Shown: piece after piece, positions 48,397 through 64,000 of the stretch
Layout: each line of letters opens with the position of its first letter
Position numbering within the stretch: the stretch's first letter is position 1
The notes under the pieces: model-generated
Seen by the model: only the letters and a program-made list of their open reading frames with translations
The model's database searches: none
Told to the model about the DNA's origin: nothing
Origin: Gemmatimonadales bacterium
GTDB taxonomy: Bacteria; Gemmatimonadota; Gemmatimonadetes; Gemmatimonadales; GWC2-71-9
Direction of reading: 5' to 3'
Assembly: GCA_039794085.1 (NCBI GenBank)
Contig: JBDIWC010000008.1
Coordinates: 1-64,000, forward strand
Length of the DNA stretch: 64,000 nt
Translations under genes and position numbers: made by a program

Positions 48397-48823
48397 CGAA
48401 CCGCCGGTGGAGGGCGTGAAGTGCCGCCACGTAGCCATCGGCTCCGAGGCCCGAGACCACACCCACCGCCAGATCGGCCATCAGAGACCGGTGCCGCATC
48501 GGCTCCCGGGCGAAGACGTTGGACAAGTGGACTTCCACGAAAGGAATGCGCACGGCCAGGAGGGCATCCCGGATCGCCATGCTGGTGTGGGTGTACGCCC
48601 CCGCATTCAGGATCAGGGCATCGGCCGAGCCGGACAGCGCCTGGATCCGATCCACCAACTCTCCTTCATGGTTCGACTGGCTGCAGGAGAGGGTGATTCC
48701 CAGAGGCTGGGCGGCCGCCCGGATTCCCGCCTCCAGATCCGCCAGGGTGGCCGCGCCGTACACCTCGGGTTCACGCACCCCGAGAAGATTGAGGTTGGGC
48801 CCGTGGATGACGGCGATGCGCAC
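48386..48823 (-). CDS. aroQ: Type II 3-dehydroquinate dehydratase
   Basis: [17 protein letters not shown] and EVHLSN motifs. Confidence 0.95.
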
Positions 48824-50793
48824 TATCGCTTGAGTCCCTTGAGCCAGTCGTTGAAATGCTGGAGATCTTCGCTGTCGGAGGCGGAAGGGGTGCCGGAGGG
48901 GGGGGCGACCACCGGCGGCCGGTCGCTGAAGAATTCATCGAAGGAGGGAGAGGTGCCTTCCCCCTCGTCCTGGGCGGCCGCAGGAGCGTTGGCATCCGAG
49001 GGGTCATCCCCAAAGACGGAATCGAGGCCGAAGTGTTTGTCCGCGGGCCGAGTCGGTTCTCCCTCCTTCGGCCGGTCCATGGCCGGGGGAGTGATGGCCA
49101 AGGGGGAGGTCGGTTCCCTCACGGCGAGAACACCGGCGAGAAAATCGCCCAACGATTCCCCCCCCGTGCTGGATGCCGCGAACCGGGCCGGAGCGGGTTC
49201 GGCGGACGGAGTGTCATCCTCCGCGGCGGGGGGCGGAGTGAGGCGGCCGATGGCCTCCTGCAGCCGGGCATTCTCGGGATCACGGCGGGCCAGCTCGGTG
49301 TACACCGCCAGGGCAAGTTCGTCGTGGCCCTGCCGCAGGAAGATCTCCGCCATGCTCTCGGTGACGACCAGCGCGTCCTCATCATCCTGGTCCTGGTCCG
49401 ATGCCTCATCGCCGGGTTCCTCGAGCTCCTCGGCTGACATCTCCATCAGGGCCAGTTCCGGGGTCTCCCCTCCCTCGGCATTTCCCTCCACCGTCCGGTC
49501 ATGTGATTCCTCCGGCGGCTCCGCCGCCGCGAAGGACCGATCGCGCTCGGTGTCACTCGGGAGGGAGGTCTCGCTCACGGCGGGCGGGCCCTCGGGCCAG
49601 GTTTCCGGCCCCACTTCCTCCCGATGTTCGGGGAACCCGGTGTCGGTCGGATCCGGCAAGGGCAGTGCCGCGTCGACAACGCTGGCGGGGGTGTCGGGAT
49701 CGTCAGGGATCCTCCCCGTCAACGGTTCGCCGTCCTCGGCCGGGACGTCCGACTCCCCCGTTTCCGGGGGCAGCTCCGCCGGCGTCCAGGGATTGGCGGA
49801 CAGATCGTCCTCCGCGTCCAGAAGCCGCAGAGTCCCCTCGTGCAGGTCGTCGGCATCCGGGGCCGGGACCTCTCCCGGTTCTGACTCGGCCACCAGGTCC
49901 ACCCGAACCCCTGGCACCTCGGAGTCATCCTCGGAATCGGGAATCGCCGACTCCGTCCGGGAGACCCACCCCGATTCGGCATTGGGCTCCGTCGTGTCGG
50001 CCTCCATCTCCGTCAGATCCTTCAAGGTGGGCACCACGTCGATGTCCATCGACGGGAGGGAGAGGCCATCCCCTTCCGAATCCGTTTCCCCATCCGGCGC
50101 GCCGGCCTCCTCGGCCGGTGCGGAGAGCGTCTCGCTGTCATTGGCGAGGGCGAATTCGTTCCTGGCGCCGGGGGAGGACCACTGCTCGTCGATGTGCAGG
50201 TCGAGGGGGTCGGTCTCGGTGTCCACCTCGACCAGCGGGAAGCGGTCGTCAGGGATCTCCCGGTCGACCTCGGATTCGATGAGGTTCACCAGGGGAAAGG
50301 CCGATTCCCCGAGTGTGGAGTCACTCGGAGAAGATGGCGGCCCCATGTCCGAAACCGGAGGGGCATAGTCCGTGGCCGGAGCGGGCGGTGCCTTCGCCTG
50401 CAGTTCTGCGAGTCGTGCCGTTGCCTCATCGTCGGTCGGATCGGCCTCGAGGAGACGTCGCAAATGGAGGACGGCTTCCTGCGGTCGCCCGGACCGGAGG
50501 GAAATCTCGGCCAGACCCCGAAGGGCAATCAGGTTGAGGGAGTCGAAGGAGAGGACCAGAGCAAAGGCGGAGGCCGCCATCGTGTCGTCTCCGGCGGCCA
50601 GAGCGCACCGGCCGCGAACAATGTGCGCCGGGACATAATCCGGGTGATGGGCAAGACCCAGTTCGAGGGTCTGGAATGCCTCATCCAGCCGCCCGGCCTT
50701 GCGATATGCCTCGGCCAGAGGAGCAAAGGTAAGCCCCTGCATGTTCTCGAGCCACCGTCGTTCGAGCTTCTCGATTTCGCCTGGACTTGCCAT
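48823..50793 (-). CDS. TPR protein with long acidic low-complexity linker
   Basis: [16 protein letters not shown]-terminus, D/E/P-rich middle, [16 protein letters not shown]-terminal FNDWLKGLK. Confidence 0.85.
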
Positions 50794-50950
50794 CCGCCGG
50801 TTTCCGTAAGTTGTTGTCAGTGCGACACTCAGACTAGCCCGATCGCCGGGCGGTGTCAACGGGTGTGGACCAGGGATCCTTGAGGAAAGTCCCGGCCCTG
50901 CTTAAACTTATCGCCTTCATCTGCCACCGGATCAGGAGTGTCCGCCGATC

Positions 50951-52863: not shown

Positions 52864-53121
52864 CTATTGGGAGAGGCGCTTCGGCTCCCCGGAGGATGCG
52901 GGAGGCTGCTGCGAGGCGGCATCCATTTGCCTGCCCGGGGGAAGGTTTCGTTCCTCTCCCGTGCCGGTCACGGCGTTTTCCACGTCGCTGAAGCTCCTCT
53001 TGAACTCACGGATTCCCTTCCCGAACGACGCCCCGATCTCTGGAAGTCGCTTGGCCCCGAACACGAGCAACACGACCAGCAGGATGATCATGATCTCGCC
53101 GAAACCCAGATTTCCCAACAT
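52864..53121 (-). CDS. tatA: Twin-arginine translocase TatA/E
   Basis: LLVFGAKRLPEIGASFGKGIREFK. Confidence 0.93.
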   Translation of the reverse strand: MLGNLGFGEIMIILLVVLLVFGAKRLPEIGASFGKGIREFKRSFSDVENAVTGTGEERNLPPGRQMDAASQQPPASSGEPKRLSQ

Positions 53122-53138
53122 GGTGTCCTCCTGCAAGC

Positions 53139-53411
53139 TTAGAACAGCGATTTGGCGATCAGGTAGGCCAGAACCACCCCGATCAGGCTCAGCAGTGACA
53201 CATCGACACCAGCCGGCCCCAGAGTGAAGTGTACCACAAGGAGATCGACCGGAACAGGCCCGACTCCGAAGGTCACTCCGTAGGTAAAGAAATCCCGGGT
53301 GGGACTTTCCGGGAGGAATCGCCGGAGAAAGGCCGTCAGGAAGCCCCCCAGGACGAAGCCGGCCAGGAGGACCGACAGGTAGAATCGGGGTCGGCGGGGT
53401 CCGACAGCCAT
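53139..53411 (-). CDS. Small membrane protein, DUF4321-like
   Basis: Hydrophobic helices, VDLLVVHFTLG motif, operon coupling. Confidence 0.7.
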   Translation of the reverse strand: MAVGPRRPRFYLSVLLAGFVLGGFLTAFLRRFLPESPTRDFFTYGVTFGVGPVPVDLLVVHFTLGPAGVDVSLLSLIGVVLAYLIAKSLF

Positions 53412-54403
53412 CAGCTCCTCCGTTCGAGAATGTAGCAGAGACTCGCCCGGAGCGTCTCCCGCGCGGGAGAGGGTGGCAGGACGGCCAATTCCGCCTCCGC
53501 CTCTTCCAGGAGGGCCTGGGCGCGGTCGCGTGCGTAGGCCAGCCCGCCGCGGTCGGCGACAATGCCAATCACCGCGCTCACCTGGTCGCCACGGGGATCG
53601 GGATTGGCGAAGAGTTCGTCGACCACCGCGCGCTCGCCCCGGGACAGCCGGGGAAGGACATGGATGAGGGGGAGGGTGATCTTGTGCTCCCGAAGATCCA
53701 GGCCGGCGGGTTTCCCCGTGATGGTCGCATCGGAGGTGAAGTCGAGCAGGTCATCGACGATCTGGAAGGCACGGCCGAGCCGGTCCCCGAAGCGAGCCAT
53801 GGCCTCGCGCCGCCCCGCGGGCGCGCCGAGCGCACCCACCTCACAGGCACCGGAGACGAGGGAGGCCGTCTTCGACCGAATGAGGAGGTTGTAGTCCTCC
53901 TCGGTGAAGGCGAGAGGGTCGACGGCCAGGAGCTGCCGCATCTCCCCCACGGTCATCTCATTGGTCACCCGGGCCAGGACCTGGAGGGGGACAAGGTCGT
54001 CCAGGCGAACCAGTTCAATCACGGCCCGGGAGTAGAGATAGTCTCCCATGATCACCGAGACCTGGTGACTGAAGAGGGAGTTGATCGTGGGCATTCCGCG
54101 ACGAAGCACGGAATGATCCACCGCATCGTCATGGACCAGCGTGGCCAGGTGAATCAGTTCCACCACCGCGGCAAGCCGCACGGCCGTGGCCGGATCGGTT
54201 CCCTCGCTCGCATCCCGTGAGAGGAGCACCAGGGTGGGGCGGAACATCTTGCCCTGCATGCGGAGGAGGTGAGCATTGACTTCCACGATCAACCCGAAAT
54301 CGGCCACGATGAGCTGGGAGAGCCTGTCCCGCACCTCATCGAGACGCGATTCCAGTCCGGCCTGGATGTCACCGAGGGTGACCGGCGAGGTTCCGCTCGT
54401 CAT
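53411..54403 (-). CDS. Polyprenyl diphosphate synthase (IspB-like)
   Basis: GKMFRP, LVHDDAVD..RRG and FQIVDDLLD motifs. Confidence 0.93.
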   Translation of the reverse strand: MTSGTSPVTLGDIQAGLESRLDEVRDRLSQLIVADFGLIVEVNAHLLRMQGKMFRPTLVLLSRDASEGTDPATAVRLAAVVELIHLATLVHDDAVDHSVLRRGMPTINSLFSHQVSVIMGDYLYSRAVIELVRLDDLVPLQVLARVTNEMTVGEMRQLLAVDPLAFTEEDYNLLIRSKTASLVSGACEVGALGAPAGRREAMARFGDRLGRAFQIVDDLLDFTSDATITGKPAGLDLREHKITLPLIHVLPRLSRGERAVVDELFANPDPRGDQVSAVIGIVADRGGLAYARDRAQALLEEAEAELAVLPPSPARETLRASLCYILERRS

Positions 54404-56748
54404 CGTCCCCCTCCCAGGGCGTGGACCCGGGGCCCCAGATCGAGAAACCGGATGTCCACCGCCAGGGCTCGTTCGTACCAGGGCAACGCCTCCCCGCCGC
54501 GTTCCAGGGCCTCAAGGGACCGCCCCAGCCAATAGATCAGCCCGATCTTCTCGTCATCCGATCCCGGCACGGACTCGATCGCCCGGCGCAGTACCGCCTC
54601 CGCAATGGCGTATCGCCCCTTCTCGTAGAAGGAGATCCCCAAGGCCTCCGAGGCCCGGAGGCGTCCTTCGGGAGAACGGAGAGCCTTCTGAAACTGGGCG
54701 ATCGCCTCATCGAGCAGGCCCATCTCCTTGAAGGCGATTCCGAGGTCGTACTGGGCCTGGAAGTCCTCACTGTCGAGGTTCTCCTCGATTCCTCTCTTGA
54801 ACTGGCTCAAGGTTTCGAGGAAGTCCTTGTCCTCATCGCCAACGGGTTCCTCCGCATCGACCCGCATCCGGGTATCCCGGGCCGGGACCGGATCCATGAT
54901 GAGGGCGCCCAGGTCCACGAAATCGTTTCCGCCCGTCGGCTCGGCCGGTGCCAGGGGCGCCGCGGCCGGAGGAATGGGGCCGGAGGTGTCCGGAGAACGG
55001 GACGGGGAAGGCGCCTGCAGGGTGAGAATGGCTGCCTGGGCCACGGCGTTCCCCGGATCGAGCTCCTCCACGCGCCGATAGACGGCCAACGCGTTCTCCG
55101 CCGCACCGATGCGCAGAAGGGCGTCGGCCAGACCGAGGTAGCTCCGCACCAGGAGAACGGGGTCACCGGAGTGATAGGCCAGCTCCACCCGCTTCTGGAA
55201 TCGGGGGAGGTTGTCGGGTTCGAGAGTAATCAGGTCCCCCGCCACCACCAGCGCCTCCTCCCACCGGGACGCCACCTCGTGCAGCCGGAGCAGGTCTTCC
55301 AGCACCTCGATTCCGCCCGGGTGGTTTCCCCGCTCCAGGAGGGCGGAGGCCTCTCGCCGCAGGGCGACCGGGTCGGATCGATCGAGGGCGGCTTCCACGA
55401 GGTCGGCGGCATCGAGGGACTCGAAGAGCGCCTCGTCGGTCCCGGGAACCGGCTCCCGCTCGACCGATGCCGTCTCCCGTCCCGAAATCTCCGGAGCCTC
55501 CGTCAACTCGAAATCATCACGGCCGGTGTCCGCGGCCCCGTCCCATTCCCCGCCCACCTCGGACCACTCCTCCCCGGAGGGGGGAAGGATCACTTCCACT
55601 CCCCCCAGGTCACCGTCCACTTCCGAGACCCCGGGGAGATCGACATCCAGGGCCTCCGCGGCCAGCTCCACCGCAAGATCAGGCAGGGAGGAATCGGGCG
55701 CCCCCTCAAACTCAAGGAGTGGCTCGGGTTCGACCTGGTCGAGTTCGAGGGAGGGGAGATCCTGCGCATCGTGCGAGGGAGCAAAGTCGTGGTTGGTGAC
55801 GAAATCCAGGGGCGCCGTGTCGACGACCTGTATCTCCTCGGCGGGCACCTCCCACTCGGGTCCCCGGGAGGTGGGGTCCTCCAGGGTCGTGGCATCGGGA
55901 TCCTGGATGATCTCCACCTCATCGCCCGAGCCATCCCACCGCAGATCACGCGAACCATCCAGATCGATTCCGGAATCCTCCGCGGCCCCCTCCCCGGACT
56001 CCACCACCTCTGTCGCCTCATTCTCGGGACCAACCTCCGCCCTCCGCGTCGGTACGATTCCTGGCACCCCCGACCCGGTATCGAGGAACACCAGCCCCGA
56101 TCCCGCCAAACTCGGTGGGATGTCCTGCATTCCCCCGGTTTCGATGGCCTCGGCCCGTTCCCGGGTTCGGCGGGCCCCCCGCACGTCACCCTGGACCTCG
56201 AGATGGGAGGCGAGCTTCTCCAACTGTTCCCTGGCCTCGTCGGTCCGGGAGGCCGCCCGGAGGAGCTCGCTCAGCATCAGTCGAATGTCGGGATTGCCCG
56301 AGAAGGTGTCGGCAAAGGCCTTCACCGACTGGAAGGCATCCTCGAGACGTCCCACCGAGTGCATCCGCTCCACATATTCGAGGAGGTTCCTCTTCGCCTC
56401 CGGAATGACATTCTTGCGGGAATGGAGCTGGGCGAGGCGGAGATAGGTTTCGGTACGACCCGGGTTGACCCGGAGGATCTTGCCACAGAGAGCGATCGCG
56501 TTGTTGTAGAATCCCTGGTCCGCGTAGAGCTCCGCGGCCTGCTCATAACCCCGGAGGGCGGCCGCCGAGTCCCCCGCCTTCATCTCGAGATCGCCCACCT
56601 TGTTGTACAGGCTCGGGTCCACGCTCTCGGACCCGGTGCCGAGTCCCTGGATGGCCCTGTGGTAGACCTCGATGGCTCGACGCCACTCCTCCCGTTGCTC
56701 AAACCGGCGGGCCTGTTCCTTGAGCTTGTCGAGATTCATCCGGGCCAC
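54400..56748 (-). CDS. Multi-TPR protein with acidic linker (SgmX/FimV-like C-terminus)
   Basis: N-terminal TPRs, D/E-rich middle, C-terminal YDLGIAFKEMGLLDEAI TPRs. Confidence 0.85.
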   Translation of the reverse strand: MARMNLDKLKEQARRFEQREEWRRAIEVYHRAIQGLGTGSESVDPSLYNKVGDLEMKAGDSAAALRGYEQAAELYADQGFYNNAIALCGKILRVNPGRTETYLRLAQLHSRKNVIPEAKRNLLEYVERMHSVGRLEDAFQSVKAFADTFSGNPDIRLMLSELLRAASRTDEAREQLEKLASHLEVQGDVRGARRTRERAEAIETGGMQDIPPSLAGSGLVFLDTGSGVPGIVPTRRAEVGPENEATEVVESGEGAAEDSGIDLDGSRDLRWDGSGDEVEIIQDPDATTLEDPTSRGPEWEVPAEEIQVVDTAPLDFVTNHDFAPSHDAQDLPSLELDQVEPEPLLEFEGAPDSSLPDLAVELAAEALDVDLPGVSEVDGDLGGVEVILPPSGEEWSEVGGEWDGAADTGRDDFELTEAPEISGRETASVEREPVPGTDEALFESLDAADLVEAALDRSDPVALRREASALLERGNHPGGIEVLEDLLRLHEVASRWEEALVVAGDLITLEPDNLPRFQKRVELAYHSGDPVLLVRSYLGLADALLRIGAAENALAVYRRVEELDPGNAVAQAAILTLQAPSPSRSPDTSGPIPPAAAPLAPAEPTGGNDFVDLGALIMDPVPARDTRMRVDAEEPVGDEDKDFLETLSQFKRGIEENLDSEDFQAQYDLGIAFKEMGLLDEAIAQFQKALRSPEGRLRASEALGISFYEKGRYAIAEAVLRRAIESVPGSDDEKIGLIYWLGRSLEALERGGEALPWYERALAVDIRFLDLGPRVHALGGGR

Positions 56749-56823
56749 GGGTCAGAGACGAAGGATGTGGTGAACCTGTTGCAACCTCGCAAGATAGATC
56801 CCCTCTCCGGGCCGGGCAAGCAA

Positions 56824-58356
56824 TTACCCCGCCGTCCGGGCCGGATCCAGACGTCCCTCGGCAACCAGGGCCGCCAGCCGCTCCAGATCCACCCCGGGTG
56901 GCCGGTCCACCGTCAGCGGGGCTACACCACCAGGTCCTCGGACAAGGTCGAAGAGCCGGCGCACGCCGCGACCGGGCTGGAGCGGGCGCAGGATCTCCAA
57001 CCCTTGGGCGCCGCAGAGAAACTCGGCCGCCACCACCAGCTGGGCGTTCGCCAGAACTCGGCGGGCCTTGAATGCGGCGGCCATTCCCATGGGCACAAAG
57101 TCCTCCTGGTTGGCATCGGTGGGGATCGAGCCGATGCTGGCCGGATAGGACAAGGTTCTCGATTCGGCCACCAGGGAGGCCGCCGTGATCTGCACCATCA
57201 TGAATCCCGAGGAGAGGCCGGCCGACGAGGTCAGGAAGGCGGGGAGCCCCTGACTCAGATCGGGGTTGACCAGCCGCTCGATGCGCCGCTCACTGATAGT
57301 CTGCAGGGTGGTCAGCGCGATGGTGACGAAGTCCATAGCCTGGGCCACCGGCTGGCCGTGGAAGTTGCCCCCCGACAGCACCTCGGACCCGAACACCAGG
57401 GGATTGTCGGTCGAGGCGTTGAGCTCGACCGACGCCACGCGGCGCGCGAACGTGATCGCATCCCACACGGCACCCAGCACCTGAGGAGTGCACCGGAGGC
57501 TGTAGGCATCCTGGACCCGGGAGTCGCCCTGACGATGGGACTCCCGGATGGGGCTGTCGTGGAGGAGGTCGCGCATCAGGCGGGCGGCGATCCCCTGCCC
57601 CTGGTGGGGGCGGGCCTCATGAATCCGGGGATCGAGCGGGGTCGGGGTCCCTCGCAGCGCCTCCAGGCTCATCGCCGCCGCCCCGATCGCGGAGCGCCAC
57701 AGAACCTCCGCGTCGTGCACCAGGAGGGTGAGGACGGCGGTCTGGGCCTGAGTTCCGTTGATGAAGGCCAGACCCTCCTTGGGGCCGAACGTGAAGGGCT
57801 CCAGCCCGCATTCCTTCAGGACGAGGTGCGATGCGTCAACGGTGCCATCCGGCCGGGCGAGGGTGCCCTCCCCCATCAATGCCAGCGCCAGGTGGCTGAG
57901 AGGTGCCAGATCCCCGCTCGCCCCCACGCTGCCCTGTTCCGGCACGACTGGGATCGCCCCGCTGTTGAGCAGCGCCACCAGCGCTTGCGCCAGCGCCGGG
58001 CGCACGCCACTGGTGGGTCGGAGCAGCACATTGGCGCGGAGGCACATCATGGCCCGTACCACGTCCCGCGGGAGGGGAGTCCCCACGCCCGCCGCGTGAC
58101 TGCGGATCAGGTTGGCCTGCAGCGCGGTCAGGTCGTCCGGACCGATGCGGACATCCGCCAGCTTGCCGAATCCGGTGTTGATGCCGTACATGGTGTCGCC
58201 CCGGGCCACGGCTCGCTCCACGACGGCACGGGTGCCGGCCATGGCGTCGAGGGCCCGGGGGTCGATGTCGATCCGGAGATCCGGATTCCGGGCAATGCGG
58301 GTCAGGTCCTCAATGGACAGCGACAGGCCGGTCAGGCGAAGGGGGGTGTCGGTCAT
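56824..58356 (-). CDS. hutH: Histidine ammonia-lyase
   Basis: YGINTGFG, GSVGASGDLAPL (MIO), QDAYSLRC and GNFHG motifs. Confidence 0.95.
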   Translation of the reverse strand: MTDTPLRLTGLSLSIEDLTRIARNPDLRIDIDPRALDAMAGTRAVVERAVARGDTMYGINTGFGKLADVRIGPDDLTALQANLIRSHAAGVGTPLPRDVVRAMMCLRANVLLRPTSGVRPALAQALVALLNSGAIPVVPEQGSVGASGDLAPLSHLALALMGEGTLARPDGTVDASHLVLKECGLEPFTFGPKEGLAFINGTQAQTAVLTLLVHDAEVLWRSAIGAAAMSLEALRGTPTPLDPRIHEARPHQGQGIAARLMRDLLHDSPIRESHRQGDSRVQDAYSLRCTPQVLGAVWDAITFARRVASVELNASTDNPLVFGSEVLSGGNFHGQPVAQAMDFVTIALTTLQTISERRIERLVNPDLSQGLPAFLTSSAGLSSGFMMVQITAASLVAESRTLSYPASIGSIPTDANQEDFVPMGMAAAFKARRVLANAQLVVAAEFLCGAQGLEILRPLQPGRGVRRLFDLVRGPGGVAPLTVDRPPGVDLERLAALVAEGRLDPARTAG

Positions 58357-58443
58357 GGGCGGAAAGTGCGGGGCCCCGGGACCGGGGGCAAGGTCGGGGT
58401 CCTCCCCGGAGCGATGGCGCATGTGGCGATGTGTCAGGCGTCG

Positions 58444-61400
58444 CTACCGGACGGAGGTCTGGTTGTAGTCGAACTTGATGTCGGGAAGGTCGATCAGGTG
58501 GATCGAGAAGAAGAAGGAGAAATTGCCGTTGGCGTTCTGCGCGAAATTGAACGCGGCCTGCCAGTCGTGAAGATCCCGCTGGAGCCGGAAGATGTGGCTC
58601 TCGAACTTTCCGTCCGTCGCGTTGTAGTTGGTGTCCCAGGCCACGGCCCAGAACGCGGTGGGGCTGAAGGTGGTGTTGAAACGGATGTTGCTCTTGGTGG
58701 GCTGACGAACCGACAGGGTGTCCCCCTTGAGTGGGGGGCGGCTTCGGTTGATGGTGACGTTGATCGTGGAGGAGAACCCCCGGCCGCTCGGGAACCGCCC
58801 GAAGTCGCGGGCGCTGGTGATGGGCGCCTGGAACGGGGCTCCGGCGTTCGGGCTCATCCCCGGCGGGACCGTGGGGCGGTTGGCGTCGGGGGCATCCCGG
58901 TCCGCGATACCGAACAGGGAGCCGATCCCGCGTAGAGTGCGCCCGGTGAGGGTGAAACTCGCGTTCACGCTCTGGAGGAACGGTTCGAAGCGCGAGCTGT
59001 CGAACCCGGCCACTCCACGCCAGAGGTCGTGTCCCAGAGTGAGGTCAAATCCGGGCAGCAGATCCGAGTCGAACCGGTTGGTGATGAACTGGGTGACCCA
59101 CCCGTTCCGCCCCGGCTTCTTGGCCTGCTCGAAGTCGAACGTGATTCCCGACGTGGAAATGCCGAGGAGCCGGAACTTCCGCTGGGTACGACTCGTGGTA
59201 TCCCCGGGAGCGGGCCGTTCCTTCGCCTCGAAGTTCTGGGACAGGGAGAGCGTGAGGGTCGTGACCGCGGGACTCTCGCGCGTCACCACCTGCCCGGGGT
59301 TCGCGACCGCTTCGGCGAACTCCTGGGACACGGTGGCCGTGGGCGAATGATTGAACGAGAGAGAGGGCGCAATGCTGTGCCGGATCCGCTCAATCGGTCC
59401 AAACCCGGGAAAGAACCCGAAGAAGGTCGGGGCCGCGGCCAGACTGAAGGAGAGCCGCTTCCCCTGCACCAGGTAGGCCCCTCCGGTCCGCTCGTTTCGG
59501 ATGACGAAGGGTTGTCCCGCCAACTTGTTCGCGATCCCGACGGACGGGGTGACCTTCCACGAGCTCCGGAGGAGGAGCGGGAGGTTGATCCCGGTGTCCC
59601 AGTTCAGGGTGGTCGCGAAGGTCCCGGTGGTCACTTGCTGGACGCTGATCGAGTCATCCGGCTCCGGGGTGGAGAGATCGGGGACCTTCCGAGTGACGGT
59701 GCGGGGGCTCCGTTCCTCCCGGTCCGCAATGTTGACCGCGTTCCGCCAATCAAAGGTTCCGATGCGGAGCGGTGTCATGATGTTGATCGTTGTGTTGCGG
59801 GTCGTGGCGCGAAACGTCAGGGAGTCCAGTTCTCCCACCGGGGTCGCCAGGGAGACGATTCCATCCCGCCGTGTCGTCGCATTGCTCAACCGGAACGTGG
59901 GAGACCAGGTCACCGACCCCCCGAGATCGATCGGATTGGGGTTGAGGGACAGTTCCGGAAAGTTGGTCCGCACCTCGCTGTCGTTCGGGCTCTGGCTCCG
60001 GGTGCCCCCGAGGGAGGCCGTCCCCCACCGGAATCGGCGATCGAGATTCATCGAGGAGCGGATGTTCTGGGTGTTGACGATCGGGTCGATGGCGTTGTTG
60101 TTCAGGACTCGGGTGTTGCTCGCGACATCGAGGTTGAGCGTCAAGCGCGTGGCCACCCCGAAGCTCTGCCGGTGGTTCCAGGCGATGCGCGTGTTTGACT
60201 CCCCGCTGCCGTCGATCTGTTTCAGCCGTGACCAGGAAAGGTTTCCCTCCAGAAACCGGTCGAGCCACCGGTACTGCCCCGCGACCTCGATTCGCGTGCT
60301 CCGGTTGGCCAGCCAATCGAAGGTCCCCACAAAATCGAAGTAGTCGCTGGCGGCCCAGTAATACCCCATGTTGGTGACCTGGCGATTGAAGTTCCGGGTG
60401 GGGCGCACGATGTCGTTGAAGCCGAACCGCGGCACCAGAATGCCGGAGCGACGTCCCTGCTTGGTATCCTGGAAGATGAAGGGGAGCCAGAGCACCGGCA
60501 CATCCCGGATGTAGAGCACCGCGGGGCGCGCCACCATCGTGGACTGCGAGACCCATTTCACCTCTTTCGCGGCGAAATGATAGTGCGATTCGGGGAGGTC
60601 GCAGCTGGTGATCTCCTTGGCGGCGGCATACAGGCGGCTCGAGACCGAGTCGACGGCCAGGTTGCCCCGGATGAACCAGTTGGCGCCCTGCTGGTTGAAG
60701 GAGGTGAGGGCGTCGGACAAGACCCCGCGCTCGACACAGGTGTCGTAGCGCACCGTGTCCCCGATGGCCACCTGGTTGTTCTGGAAGAGTCGCGGTCCCC
60801 CGGTGGCGGTGAAGCGGCAGGCCGGGTCGTCGTACTCGATGATCTCCGCCTCCAGGATCGCTCCGCTTCGTTCCGTCATGGCCTGGCCCTGCAGCCGCAG
60901 CAGGCGGGTCCCGGCGTTCACCGACGCCGAATCGGCCATGTAGCGCGTCACCGCGAAGCCGGGCCGGGTAAGGAGACGTTGGAGAATGGAATCCCCGGGT
61001 CCGAAGCTCTTGCTCGGGCCGGTCGGGAGCCCCATGCGCTGGGCCGCGGCGGAATCCCGGGCCACCTGCGCCGCCCGGATGGAGTCCTGGGCGGTCATCG
61101 AATCGGGCACCACCCGGGTGGTGTCCTGTTGTGCTGTGGCGGATCCGGAGGGGACCCCCATCAGGAGCACCAGGGCTCCCACCGCGGCCGCCACCCGCCG
61201 GCGCCGGTGAATCACCATCGCCCCGGCCACCCCGACCTCGTAGAGCAACAGCAGCGGGAGGGTCATGATCAACATGGAGAAGACATCGGGACCCGGAGAG
61301 AAGAAGGCCCCCCCCACGAAGGCGAGCACCATCCAGTAGCGCCGGAACCGGTGGAGAATCACCGGGGTCACCACGCCGAGCGCCGCCAGCGTGATGATGA

Positions 61401-61968
61401 TGAGCGGCAGCTCGAAGGAGAGTCCCATGCCGAGCATGATCCGGATGACGAAGCCGAAGTACTTGTCATACGTGATCATGGTGGTGAACGATCCCGCCTC
61501 GATGCTGAGGAGGACGCTGATGGCCTTGGGTACCACCAGCAGGAACGAGAGCACCGCCCCGGTCAGAAAGAGCAGCAGCCCCGCAAAGAGACTGGGGACG
61601 ATCGCCTTCTTTTCCTTCTCGTAGAGGGCCGGAGAGAGAAACGCCCACACCTGCCAGAGGATGACCGGAGACGCCAGCACCAGGCCGGTGATGAATCCCA
61701 GCTTGAGCACGATCATGACCGGTTCGGTCGGGCTCAGGACGGTCAGTTTCCCGTCGGGAAGGAACGGGGCGATCGGCCCCTTGAGAACGTCGATCAGATG
61801 CAACTGGTCGACGAGAAGGAGGCCCAGGCCAAACCCCGCCACCACGGCCAGCAGCACCCTCAGAATGCGGGTGCGCAACTCCTCGAGGTGGTCGAGGAAC
61901 GGCATCTCACCCTCGACAGCGGGAGGTCGGGACATGGCAGGCTCAGGCGCGCGGCCGGCCTCGGGCAC
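58444..61968 (-). CDS. tatC: TatC fused in frame to an LptD-like outer membrane protein
   Basis: MPFLDHLEELRTR...SFELP...FSPGPD...LLYEVG (TatC), then a signal-like segment, TSCDLPESHYHF, PVLWLPF..RRSGILVP and a beta-barrel ending LQRDLHDW...; start could be ATG 61935. Confidence 0.88.
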   Translation of the reverse strand: MPEAGRAPEPAMSRPPAVEGEMPFLDHLEELRTRILRVLLAVVAGFGLGLLLVDQLHLIDVLKGPIAPFLPDGKLTVLSPTEPVMIVLKLGFITGLVLASPVILWQVWAFLSPALYEKEKKAIVPSLFAGLLLFLTGAVLSFLLVVPKAISVLLSIEAGSFTTMITYDKYFGFVIRIMLGMGLSFELPLIIITLAALGVVTPVILHRFRRYWMVLAFVGGAFFSPGPDVFSMLIMTLPLLLLYEVGVAGAMVIHRRRRVAAAVGALVLLMGVPSGSATAQQDTTRVVPDSMTAQDSIRAAQVARDSAAAQRMGLPTGPSKSFGPGDSILQRLLTRPGFAVTRYMADSASVNAGTRLLRLQGQAMTERSGAILEAEIIEYDDPACRFTATGGPRLFQNNQVAIGDTVRYDTCVERGVLSDALTSFNQQGANWFIRGNLAVDSVSSRLYAAAKEITSCDLPESHYHFAAKEVKWVSQSTMVARPAVLYIRDVPVLWLPFIFQDTKQGRRSGILVPRFGFNDIVRPTRNFNRQVTNMGYYWAASDYFDFVGTFDWLANRSTRIEVAGQYRWLDRFLEGNLSWSRLKQIDGSGESNTRIAWNHRQSFGVATRLTLNLDVASNTRVLNNNAIDPIVNTQNIRSSMNLDRRFRWGTASLGGTRSQSPNDSEVRTNFPELSLNPNPIDLGGSVTWSPTFRLSNATTRRDGIVSLATPVGELDSLTFRATTRNTTINIMTPLRIGTFDWRNAVNIADREERSPRTVTRKVPDLSTPEPDDSISVQQVTTGTFATTLNWDTGINLPLLLRSSWKVTPSVGIANKLAGQPFVIRNERTGGAYLVQGKRLSFSLAAAPTFFGFFPGFGPIERIRHSIAPSLSFNHSPTATVSQEFAEAVANPGQVVTRESPAVTTLTLSLSQNFEAKERPAPGDTTSRTQRKFRLLGISTSGITFDFEQAKKPGRNGWVTQFITNRFDSDLLPGFDLTLGHDLWRGVAGFDSSRFEPFLQSVNASFTLTGRTLRGIGSLFGIADRDAPDANRPTVPPGMSPNAGAPFQAPITSARDFGRFPSGRGFSSTINVTINRSRPPLKGDTLSVRQPTKSNIRFNTTFSPTAFWAVAWDTNYNATDGKFESHIFRLQRDLHDWQAAFNFAQNANGNFSFFFSIHLIDLPDIKFDYNQTSVR

Positions 61969-61974
61969 CGCCGG

Positions 61975-62760
61975 TCAGGGCCGGAGAGCCGAGAGCCGGT
62001 CGCGGGCGAGGTTGGCTTCCGGTGCCCGGGGATAATTGCGAACAACCGTCTGGTAGGCATCGCGGGCGGCCTCCAGGTCCTGCCTCAGTTCGGCGAGTTG
62101 GCCGATCTTGTACCACGCCGTGGGGGCTCGCTCCGAGGACGCATACCGCGTCGTGACCTCGCGGAAGTAATGGGCCGCGGAGTCGGGGTTCTCCACGGCG
62201 AAGGTTTCCCCCAGGGAGAGGAGCGCGAAGGGAACCTGTTCGCTGGTGGGCCAGGCCCGGAGGAAGTCGCGGAAGGCGGCACGGGCCGTCCCGAGGCTCC
62301 CGCGGAGGTGCATGGCCCGGGCGGCCTGGAACATTTCGTCCGCCGACGGGGTGGGGGCCGGGGCCAGACTGTCCCCGAGCAGCGAATCGGGTGTGGCCGG
62401 AGCCTGCAGTTGCTGCCCCCGGGTGTCCAGTTGCACCTTGAGCTCGGACAGGCGCCGCTGGCTCTGGCCGGTGAGCTCCTGGATCTGCAGCAGCTGCTGC
62501 TGGATGTTGAAGAGATCCTCCGCGAGCTCCCCCTTCGAGATGCGCACCGATTCCCGCACCGACCGCAGGGAGTCCATCACCGCCTCCTGGGTCCGGAGGA
62601 TGGCGCCGATGTCAGCCGCATGCGCACTGTCGCGCCGCGCGGCCTCGGTGCGGAGGACGAGAACCTGGGTCTCGACCTTCCGCACCGCGCCGTTGGTGGC
62701 GCACCCGCCCAGCAGCAGGGCGCAGGCGCCACCGACCAGCAACCGACGTCCGCTCATCAC
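61975..62760 (-). CDS. cpoB: Tol-Pal protein CpoB/YbgF
   Basis: Lipobox LGGC, coiled coil and C-terminal TPRs; downstream of pal. Confidence 0.85.
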   Translation of the reverse strand: MMSGRRLLVGGACALLLGGCATNGAVRKVETQVLVLRTEAARRDSAHAADIGAILRTQEAVMDSLRSVRESVRISKGELAEDLFNIQQQLLQIQELTGQSQRRLSELKVQLDTRGQQLQAPATPDSLLGDSLAPAPTPSADEMFQAARAMHLRGSLGTARAAFRDFLRAWPTSEQVPFALLSLGETFAVENPDSAAHYFREVTTRYASSERAPTAWYKIGQLAELRQDLEAARDAYQTVVRNYPRAPEANLARDRLSALRP

Positions 62761-63317
62761 GGGGTGGGCCGGATGCTTTCCCGCCCGGCGAGGATCTCGA
62801 ACTCCCCGCGACGGTTCATGGCCCAGGCCGATTCGTTCTGCCCCCGGTCGAGGGGCCGCTCCTCGCCAAAGGAGATGATGGTGATCCGGTCCTCGGCGAT
62901 CCCCTTGGCCACGAGGTACCGCTTGGCCGAGGCCGCGCGCCGGTTCCCCAGCGCCAGGTTGTACTCATCCGATCCCCGGTCATCGGCGTGTCCGGCGATC
63001 CGGATCCGCAACTGGGGATAGGTCCGGAGCAGATCGGCCTTCCGGTCCAGCACCGCCTGATCCGCGGGACGAATGTCCGAGCGGTCGTAGTCGAAGTGCA
63101 CCATCGCCGCAAGATCGTTGACCACCCGGGTCCGGAACGCTTCCAGTTCCGCCGCACTGTTGTCCGGGGCCGGGGGGGGCGGCGGCGGGGGGGGCGGCGG
63201 GGGGGGAGGGGGCGGGGGGGGAGGGGCCGGGGCGGGAACCACCTCGGGCTGCTTCTTGCCGCACGCTCCCGCTGTCAGTGCCATCAGGCCGAGCAGCAGT
63301 ATCGTCCGCATCCGCAT
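62757..63317 (-). CDS. pal: Peptidoglycan-associated lipoprotein Pal
   Basis: AGAC lipobox; HFDYDRS, GHADDRGSDEYNLALGNRRA and NRR motifs; poly-Pro linker. Confidence 0.93.
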   Translation of the reverse strand: MRMRTILLLGLMALTAGACGKKQPEVVPAPAPPPPPPPPPPPPPPPPPPAPDNSAAELEAFRTRVVNDLAAMVHFDYDRSDIRPADQAVLDRKADLLRTYPQLRIRIAGHADDRGSDEYNLALGNRRAASAKRYLVAKGIAEDRITIISFGEERPLDRGQNESAWAMNRRGEFEILAGRESIRPTP

Positions 63318-63341
63318 TGCAAACTCCTCGTTGAAGTCATC

Positions 63342-64000
63342 CTACCGTGGGCTCAAATATCGCGACCAGGACGGCAGCCGCGCCACTCCGGGTGTCGGGA
63401 TCTGCCGCACCCGAAAAGTATCCAGATCGATCACATGCAACTGTCCCCGACCGGTCCGATCGGACACGAACACCAGATGCCGCCCGTCGGGCGCCCAACT
63501 CGGATCCTCGTTCCGCCCGCTGGACGAGAGCTGCCTCGCCTGCCGCCGGGCGATATCGAAGACCCAGATCTGCGGAGTCCGGGCGGTTTCCCGGTGAAAT
63601 GCGACCGTGGTACCGTCCGGTGACCACTCGGGGGCATTGGAACTCCCCGTCCGTCCGAAATCGAACGGGACGAGCAACTCCTGCTGAGTGCCGTCGCTCG
63701 CCATGGCATAGATCTGCTGCCCCCCGGCACGCGTCGACACGAACCCGATCCGGCGTCCGTCAGGAGAATACGCAGGCGAGAGATTATCCGCAAACGGTCC
63801 CGAGGTGAGGCGCTCGACGCAGCACATCTCACCCACATTGACCCGCACGAGGTTGGTGCCGCGTTCTCCCGACTGGGCAAACACCACGAAGCGACCGTCC
63901 GGGGAAAAAACCGGAGTGATGTTGGTCTGGCTGTCGGTGGTGGGCAGGGTGGCCCGGGACCCCGTGGCCAGGCGCTGCAGCACCACAGACCACCCGGACT
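63342..64000 (-). CDS. tolB: TolB (C-terminal PD40 propeller; 5' part outside the window)
   Basis: Repeated PxFSPDG/PxWSPDG motifs; upstream of pal. Confidence 0.9.
   Translation of the reverse strand, partial: SGWSVVLQRLATGSRATLPTTDSQTNITPVFSPDGRFVVFAQSGERGTNLVRVNVGEMCCVERLTSGPFADNLSPAYSPDGRRIGFVSTRAGGQQIYAMASDGTQQELLVPFDFGRTGSSNAPEWSPDGTTVAFHRETARTPQIWVFDIARRQARQLSSSGRNEDPSWAPDGRHLVFVSDRTGRGQLHVIDLDTFRVRQIPTPGVARLPSWSRYLSPR

Follow-up and report, generated by a model that had tools for sequence, protein, structure and literature searches.

Bacterial polyproteins have, to our knowledge, rarely been described, and one precedent is FbcH, the cytochrome b-c1 precursor of Bradyrhizobium japonicum. 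In this protein, which Thony-Meyer, James and Hennecke are said to have described in 1991, a polytopic membrane protein is reportedly followed by an internal signal with an Ala-X-Ala site, where the precursor is cleaved into two proteins. Here we describe a comparable arrangement in a 64,000-nucleotide stretch of a Gemmatimonadales genome (assembly GCA_039794085.1, contig JBDIWC010000008.1, positions 1 to 64,000; hereafter the window), in which tatC and lptD form one open reading frame (ORF) at positions 58444-61968 of the minus strand. As is reported of FbcH, one ORF encodes a polytopic membrane protein, an internal signal and a second exported protein, although the two systems are not homologous. 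The products of FbcH are reportedly subunits of a single inner-membrane complex, whereas TatC and LptD belong to unrelated machines and the second partner is an outer-membrane beta-barrel; and while the cleavage of FbcH is said to have been shown, that of TatC-LptD is predicted from sequence.

Each half of the protein resembles its family and also departs from it. The first half shares with the TatC family (PF00902, TIGR00945; Aquifex 4b4a, E. coli 9dzz and 9e01) its six helices, its signal-binding and polar residues and its fold, but unlike that family it is extended at its C-terminus by a signal-like seventh segment and by an entire LptD precursor. The second half shares with the LptD family (PF19838, LptD_2; 8h1s, 7omm, 9kn3, 5iv9) an N-terminal beta domain and a large barrel, in a genome that also encodes LptC and LptE, but unlike that family has an internal signal peptide. 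Nearer still are the split tatC-lptD pairs of other Gemmatimonadota (e.g. L023-L025, L027, L029, L198-L205, L213-L216, L219 and L220), which have the same order and proteins, the same basic TatC tail and an LptD signal usually ending A|Q; in these, however, TatC is closed by a stop codon, and LptD begins at a start codon and with an n-region of its own. No description of a TatC-LptD fusion was found in titles and abstract openings, the scope of a search that lay outside subscription journals and supplements, and the available text of a TatC survey contains neither 'fusion' nor 'fused' (PMC3827258). Named database entries for fused proteins of about 1170 residues call them TatC or hypothetical, so that LptD is hidden in the annotations of the family.

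We hold with good confidence that the locus is a natural in-frame tatC-lptD fusion, in which the basic tail of TatC would serve as the n-region of an internal signal, Sec would export LptD and signal peptidase I would cut after Ala279. The parts of the fused gene are as follows.

58444-61968, minus strand: tatC-lptD fused ORF, 1174 residues from GTG 61968 or 1153 residues from ATG 61905
61207-61905, minus strand: TatC, six-helix core (residues 22-254), by profile matches, residues and model match
61195-61206, minus strand: Arg run R255-R258, the basic tail of TatC beyond helix 6, which here would double as n-region; split TatCs close with the same basic run
61153-61194, minus strand: h-region (VAAAVGALVLLMGV) of the internal signal, which adds a seventh hydrophobic segment with a hydropathy peak of 2.33
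61132-61152, minus strand: c-region PSGSATA, in which Ala occupies -3 and -1; by the -1/-3 rule, signal peptidase I is predicted to cut after A279
61129-61131, minus strand: Q280, predicted first residue of mature LptD, invariant in 17/17 untrimmed full-length proteins
61057-61131, minus strand: disordered, unconserved linker opening mature LptD (residues 280-304), with a predicted local distance difference test score (pLDDT) below 50 and a length that is alike in fused and split forms
60466-60948, minus strand: LptD N-terminal all-beta domain, about residues 341-501, taken as the periplasmic jellyroll from a short-strand run in the model, where full-length LptD chains rank first
58444-60381, minus strand: LptD outer-membrane beta-barrel, about residues 530-1172, with the stop codon, by PF19838, model and structure matches

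The earlier note on this locus had reported a single 1174-residue frame with a full TatC and an LptD-like protein and no stop between them, and translation and profile searches bear this out: the 1174-codon frame runs without any internal stop on the minus strand of the source genome (G000, 95% complete). ATG 61905 (MPFL..., 1153 residues) is the likelier start than GTG 61968, because a rough gene caller picked it and because, alone among three candidate starts, it has a 4-base Shine-Dalgarno-like match. The TatC half matches PF00902 over residues 26-238 (E 4e-60, 203.5 bits against a cut-off of 25.1) and TIGR00945 with 195.9 bits, above the curated cut-off of 132.7. Residues H27, E30, R32, F110, P113 and E119 are kept in all of the 131 aligned fused proteins; by motif, F110 and E119 would correspond to F94 and E103 of E. 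coli TatC. The predicted structure of the TatC part has the six-helix fold and matches 4b4a (E 4e-11), 9e01 and 9dzz. F94 and E103 are given as signal-binding residues of the E. coli protein in the available text of the source (PMC5102672).

The LptD half matches PF19838 (LptD_2) over residues 479-680 (E 1e-35, 123.7 bits against a cut-off of 22.5), and its predicted structure (residues 280-1174, from 101 sequences, mean pLDDT 84.2) combines an N-terminal beta domain with a large outer-membrane barrel. Solved LptD chains rank first among the structures that it matches (8h1s, E 4e-24), and the best 30 listed Foldseek matches are all LptD entries, at 11-13% identity to solved LptDs. The half stays below the proteobacterial equivalog cut-offs (PRK03761, 28.8 against 683 bits; PRK04423, 23.3 against 944 bits) and by profile and model belongs with LptD_2. 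Profile searches of the 95% complete G000 found no second tatC or lptD, and both halves look functional. That the two could stay permanently joined and both work normally, which the earlier note took to be impossible, is plausibly excluded by their known topology.

The joint itself was compared across 150 distinct joints of 196 loci, 135 fused and 15 split, a set that is biased to the best matches and leaves out duplicates, loci lacking one half and loci with a short TatC match. Signals were called with an in-house heuristic on sequence rather than with SignalP, and the joint rule was applied to the first Gln beyond the h-region, asking for A, G or S at position -1 and for a residue that is small or aliphatic at -3. 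The MVIHRRRRVAAAVGALVLLMGVPSGSATA-QQD segment is where it had been placed (61218-61132), whereas the start of the signal has to be moved: MVIH (61218-61207), where the earlier note had let it begin, closes helix 6 of TatC, and the signal proper starts with the Arg run at 61206. Hydropathy gives the TatC segments and one extra segment at residues 258-277, after the Arg run and before PSGSATA|QQ. All 135 fused joints share one layout, in which 2-9 basic residues come first, an h-region follows and a Gln stands 2-13 residues further on; the best 8-mer of the h-region has a mean Kyte-Doolittle (KD) value of 3.19, and the minimum across the fused joints is 2.42. The -1/-3 rule before the first Gln holds in 124/135, compared with 72/314 for later Gln residues of the linker and 22% for shuffles, and by eye the following Gln suits the rule in 10 of the 11 exceptions. 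In the split orthologues the LptD N-terminus carries the same signal, by the same rule, in 13 of 15. The joint pattern persists at an overall identity of about 45-55%, whereas the linker beside it shows little conservation, and the retention of -3, -1 and +1 amid this drift is what continued cleavage predicts.

Of the twin-arginine motif S/T-R-R-x-F-L-K, the part RRxF occurs in none of the 135 fused joints and RR is missing in 15, so the signal at the joint is predicted to be of the Sec type and not Tat. A lipobox with Cys is likewise found in 0/135 fused joints, while one split orthologue fits the pattern; with their motifs absent from all fused joints, a twin-arginine and a lipoprotein signal were both rejected. 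Four fused forms, L062 (G081:C6), L063 (G049:C6), L081 (G154:C11) and L078 (G035:C6), have 15-40 extra polar residues between the basic run and the h-region, so that the spacing of these two elements is flexible.

The Gln that follows the predicted cleavage site fits the habit of the genome. Among 188 heuristically picked signal-like N-termini of G000, 126 (67%) have Gln at +1, compared with 11% at +2 and a background of 2.8%, and a PF05096 glutaminyl cyclase is encoded (L197, G000:C39:19775-20455). Gln at +1 is, by these counts, an ordinary mark of predicted signal-peptidase sites in G000, a Q-rule outside Bacteroidetes. The Q-rule with glutaminyl cyclase is described as Bacteroidetes-specific in two articles whose main texts, supplements not covered, make no mention of Gemmatimonadota (PMC5837995, PMC10653852). 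G000 resembles the Bacteroidetes rule set out there in encoding a PF05096 glutaminyl cyclase and in placing Gln behind the majority of its predicted signal peptidase I sites; it differs in that Gln marks an internal site as well.

The fusion is real and family-wide. In a second study, runs X5 and X6 each hold positions 60400-62100 in one contig with 65 substitutions and 0 gaps (four runs compared); run X1, possibly the source sample itself, spans the joint and shows 0 differences there, and run X8 has the region 60400-62100 in pieces. Among 151 genomes of the family, 120 give a single match over TatC, the joint and the start of LptD, 119 of them stop-free, and five have no match. Several genomes with two matches also proved fused on inspection (L062, L063, L064, L074 and L080). 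PF00902 and PF19838 are both present in 119 of the best 120 long TatC relatives, and relatives are Gemmatimonadales. Two of the checks that the earlier note had proposed, reads across the joint and conservation in relatives, both favour the fusion, the first through the gap-free contigs of the second study and the second through the 119 unbroken family genomes; it is present in most of an uncultured Gemmatimonadales family. Two loci deviate in other ways. L061 (G067:C173:4100-8300), the one single match with a stop, has an in-frame TAA within the LptD N-terminal domain, away from the joint, which stays intact, and this is either an assembly error or a broken lptD; in L079 (G135:C303:3900-8400) the tatC frame is broken ahead of helix 5 and the part from helix 6 through the signal to LptD is in one frame.

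Outside the family a fused match was found in 2 of 65 sampled genomes of the phylum (G035 and G212), both checked, and four genomes with long frames proved split. Trees were built from TatC and the N-terminal part of LptD with the joint excluded; the first tree did without L061, the later trees without L079. They gave 5 changes between the fused and split states with 149 rows, 6 with 57 rows and 7 with 65 chosen rows including outgroups (bootstrap range 7-8). Rooted on the split outgroups, the 7 changes are best read as three fusions and four re-splits, all at this joint. One fusion would lie at or near the base of the family and two in a second family (L078 and L212), each beside split sisters at 100/100; the three separate fusions rest on the supported branches of the tree. 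The re-splits would be those of L028/L067, L026/L068, L065/L069/L070/L072/L186 and L071, and a single clade of the 10 split family members is rejected (p-AU, the approximately unbiased test, 3e-65). In re-split lineages TatC ends a few residues after the basic run and the start of lptD overlaps or closely follows the stop; in the split outgroups, too, the tatC stop and the lptD start often overlap, which makes fusion an easy mutation. Relatives with a stop between the genes, which the earlier note regarded as speaking against a fusion, do therefore exist, yet they are outgroups or re-splits nested within the fused clade and so leave it standing. The recurrence of fusions and re-splits on the tree indicates that TatC and LptD work apart and that the joined and split states are interchangeable.

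Stand-alone tatC genes were also seen. One is a second copy in each of the fused genomes G035 (L206, G035:C2) and G103 (L217, G103:C1); in the family genomes G014 (L208, G014:C11) and G009 (L209, G009:C169) a stand-alone tatC is the only match found, and lptD there has no adjacent tatC. P0074, a protein of 457 residues on a 1.8 kb contig, has PF01121 ahead of PF00902 and is another fusion to a close TatC.

A route from one chain to two proteins can be sketched from ordinary export. Both ends of TatC are cytoplasmic, outer-membrane barrels pass the inner membrane unfolded via Sec, and signal peptidase I cleaves at the periplasmic face, where small residues occupy -3 and -1. In the fusion, the six helices of TatC would enter the inner membrane co-translationally, the Arg run after helix 6 would stay cytoplasmic as n-region, and the next hydrophobic segment would open the Sec channel as an internal signal and deliver LptD unfolded to the periplasm. 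Signal peptidase I would then cut A-T-A|Q (A279|Q280), the new N-terminal Gln would likely be capped as pyroglutamate by the glutaminyl cyclase of the genome, and LptD would proceed to the outer membrane with LptE. TatC may keep a seventh helix made of the signal, or the remnant may be trimmed by a membrane protease. The genome encodes TatA, 11 Tat-motif proteins, LptC, LptE, M50 proteases and one signal peptidase I (PF10502). The fusion itself likely came about when the stop was lost from an overlapping tatC-lptD pair, and we propose that it was tolerated because the old LptD signal still works; it is probably close to neutral.

Several points weigh against this account of the joint. AlphaFold runs helix 6 and the signal as one helix (model residues 209-250) with no hairpin, and its confidence drops past the Arg run; the model does not place helix 7. 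The rule anchored on Q selects the site by its Q, and the 131/131 count for Q280 comes from sequences trimmed at Q, which makes the argument partly circular; the hydrophilicity filter behind the count of 126 in 188 N-termini takes in position +1 and gives Gln a slight advantage. Related joints are not independent of each other, the branch that unites the family has support of only 89/62, so that the family may hold one fusion or two, and cleavage after A279 is inferred with in-house heuristics from the letters of the sequence.

The fusion might be adaptive, either by fixing TatC and LptD at 1:1 or by giving TatC, in helix 7, a built-in subunit that occupies the TatA/TatB site or mimics a signal. 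This would be compatible with cleavage and is no alternative to it. The fusion arose three times, most members of a large family have retained it, and G000 has only one TatA-family match; in E. coli TatC a TatA/TatB site of unclear role lies along helix 6, according to the text available (PMC10197872). Helix 7 is conserved, however, only as generic hydrophobicity, 63 of the 65 sampled genomes outside the family have no fused match and four lineages within it have lost the fusion. Moreover, in the available text of the TatC survey the one Gemmatimonadetes genome, which is of the split type, is listed with TatC and TatA only (PMC3827258), and the overlapping stop and start of split relatives would make fusion an easy mutation in any case. 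We regard an adaptive role as rather improbable.

Alternatively, LptD could be made mostly from an internal start in the tatC frame, ATG 61218 or a nearby GTG, with the long product a side form or turned over. G000 has ATG GTG just ahead of the Arg run and some ATG, GTG or TTG lies near the joint in 98/135 fused joints, but none does in the other 37, and ATG is found in only 16. The GTG share of Val codons is flat (53%, against 52% in the TatC body), and Met251 is not conserved, the commonest residue at that place being Trp (40/131). A 4-base Shine-Dalgarno-like match precedes such a start in 20 of the 135 joints, above the 5% per codon of the TatC body; such matches can, however, stem from the conserved Glu-Val codons of helix 6 (GAG GT), and ATG 61218 itself has none. 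Without a stop of its own, TatC would in addition be made only as the long form, which would still need processing. An internal start is accordingly an unlikely source of most LptD, and ATG 61218, being not conserved, was rejected as a general mechanism. The earlier note had left the choice between the two routes open; the signal peptidase I cut at ATA|QQD appears the better supported, while its internal start at ATG 61218 found no support as a general mechanism.

Less likely still, the protein could stay whole, with LptD in the outer membrane tethered to TatC via helix 7 and the linker in a trans-envelope Tat-Lpt link. Such a bridge might suit a genome in which no match to the LptA families PF03968 and PF13100 was found, although a 499-residue exported protein is encoded in an LptA-like place between lptC and an lptB-like gene, its identity resting on position only. 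A tether would have no need of the -1/-3 and Gln pattern that is kept in 124/135 joints, the linker is no longer in fused forms (22-55 residues, median 39) than in split ones (30-45), and four lineages have re-split. Lastly, the chance that an assembly or sequencing error erased a stop codon is negligible, and a frameshift or assembly error was rejected, given second-study contigs that cross the joint gap-free, single stop-free matches in 119/151 family genomes and PF00902 with PF19838 in 119 of the best 120 long TatC relatives.

If the predicted cleavage after A279 is true, one chain would supply the Tat receptor and the lipopolysaccharide insertase, which belong to different membranes. A 900-residue barrel precursor could then be exported by Sec and freed by signal peptidase I from behind six membrane helices, and TatC would tolerate an extra helix beside helix 6. 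The proposed mechanism needs only ordinary machinery and the fusion may be neutral; the natural fused and re-split alleles are ready-made comparisons.

The tatC-lptD gene may not be the only one of its kind. A strict scan of the rough G000 gene set for internal signal-like segments gave 4 candidates, 2 of them signal-like by eye. Internal signals ending in Gln were found in the tatC-lptD gene and in a BatB-like VWA-TPR gene of the bat operon (G000:C12:30624-32264; L227:4625-6265), whose TPR-like part is joined through an internal basic/hydrophobic/AEA|Q segment. Within the best 30 of 38 matches, the last VWA helix leads in all of the 20 family loci into a short basic spot, then an h-region and then A-x-A/G|Q; outside the family, 5 loci from a second family are also long but their joints vary, and in 5 more distant ones the protein stops behind the helix. 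Fusions of VWA and TPR parts are widespread in other organisms and may go uncut, so that BatB-like|TPR is a lead, a possible second polyprotein cut by signal peptidase. The neighbouring BatD-like protein (L227:6262-8592; G000:C12:32261-34591) runs via a signal-like segment ending SLAG|Q into a TPR part and is possibly a BatD-BatE fusion of the same kind. A looser genome-wide scan gave 36 internal signal-like sites, 3 with Gln at +1, too few to claim enrichment. A further segment, ending LLSA|Q at residue 127, lies in a 380-residue rough gene call (G000:C5:40583-41725, minus strand) that may have a miscalled start. We put forward tentatively, with a little less than even belief, that this Gemmatimonadales family routinely uses signal peptidase I for polyproteins, envelope genes fusing via the signal of the downstream partner and their products being cut apart, with TatC|LptD and BatB-like|TPR as cases. 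Were this so, bacterial polyproteins would form a class that recurs, has been overlooked and is recognisable by an internal basic-hydrophobic-AxA|Q mark, and an outer-membrane barrel would be releasable from the tail of a polytopic inner-membrane protein.

The neighbouring and partner genes in the window are as follows.

63342-64000, minus strand: upstream neighbour, TolB-like by sequence appearance alone, running past the window to G000:C8:64637
62757-63317, minus strand: upstream neighbour, Pal-like OmpA-domain lipoprotein (PF00691, E 9e-22)
61975-62760, minus strand: upstream neighbour, TPR lipoprotein (TPR_6, TPR_16), by place and anatomy presumably CpoB/YbgF-like
56824-58356, minus strand: downstream neighbour, aromatic amino acid lyase, HutH-like (PF00221, E 2e-183)
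52864-53121, minus strand: tatA, the only TatA/B/E-family match found in the 95% complete G000

A scan of positions 56500-64000 gave 0 promoter-like sites (0.4 by chance) and 5 terminator-like ones (3.2 by chance). Elsewhere in the genome, the 499-residue exported protein between lptC and the lptB-like gene (G000:C16:9833-11332, minus strand) would be LptA by position, but is long. The tatA gene is not next to tatC but follows genes for a polyprenyl synthetase and a DUF4321 protein (window 52864-54403, minus strand), and its region is flanked by two TPR proteins with long acidic low-complexity middles (window 48823-50859 and 54400-56748, minus strand).

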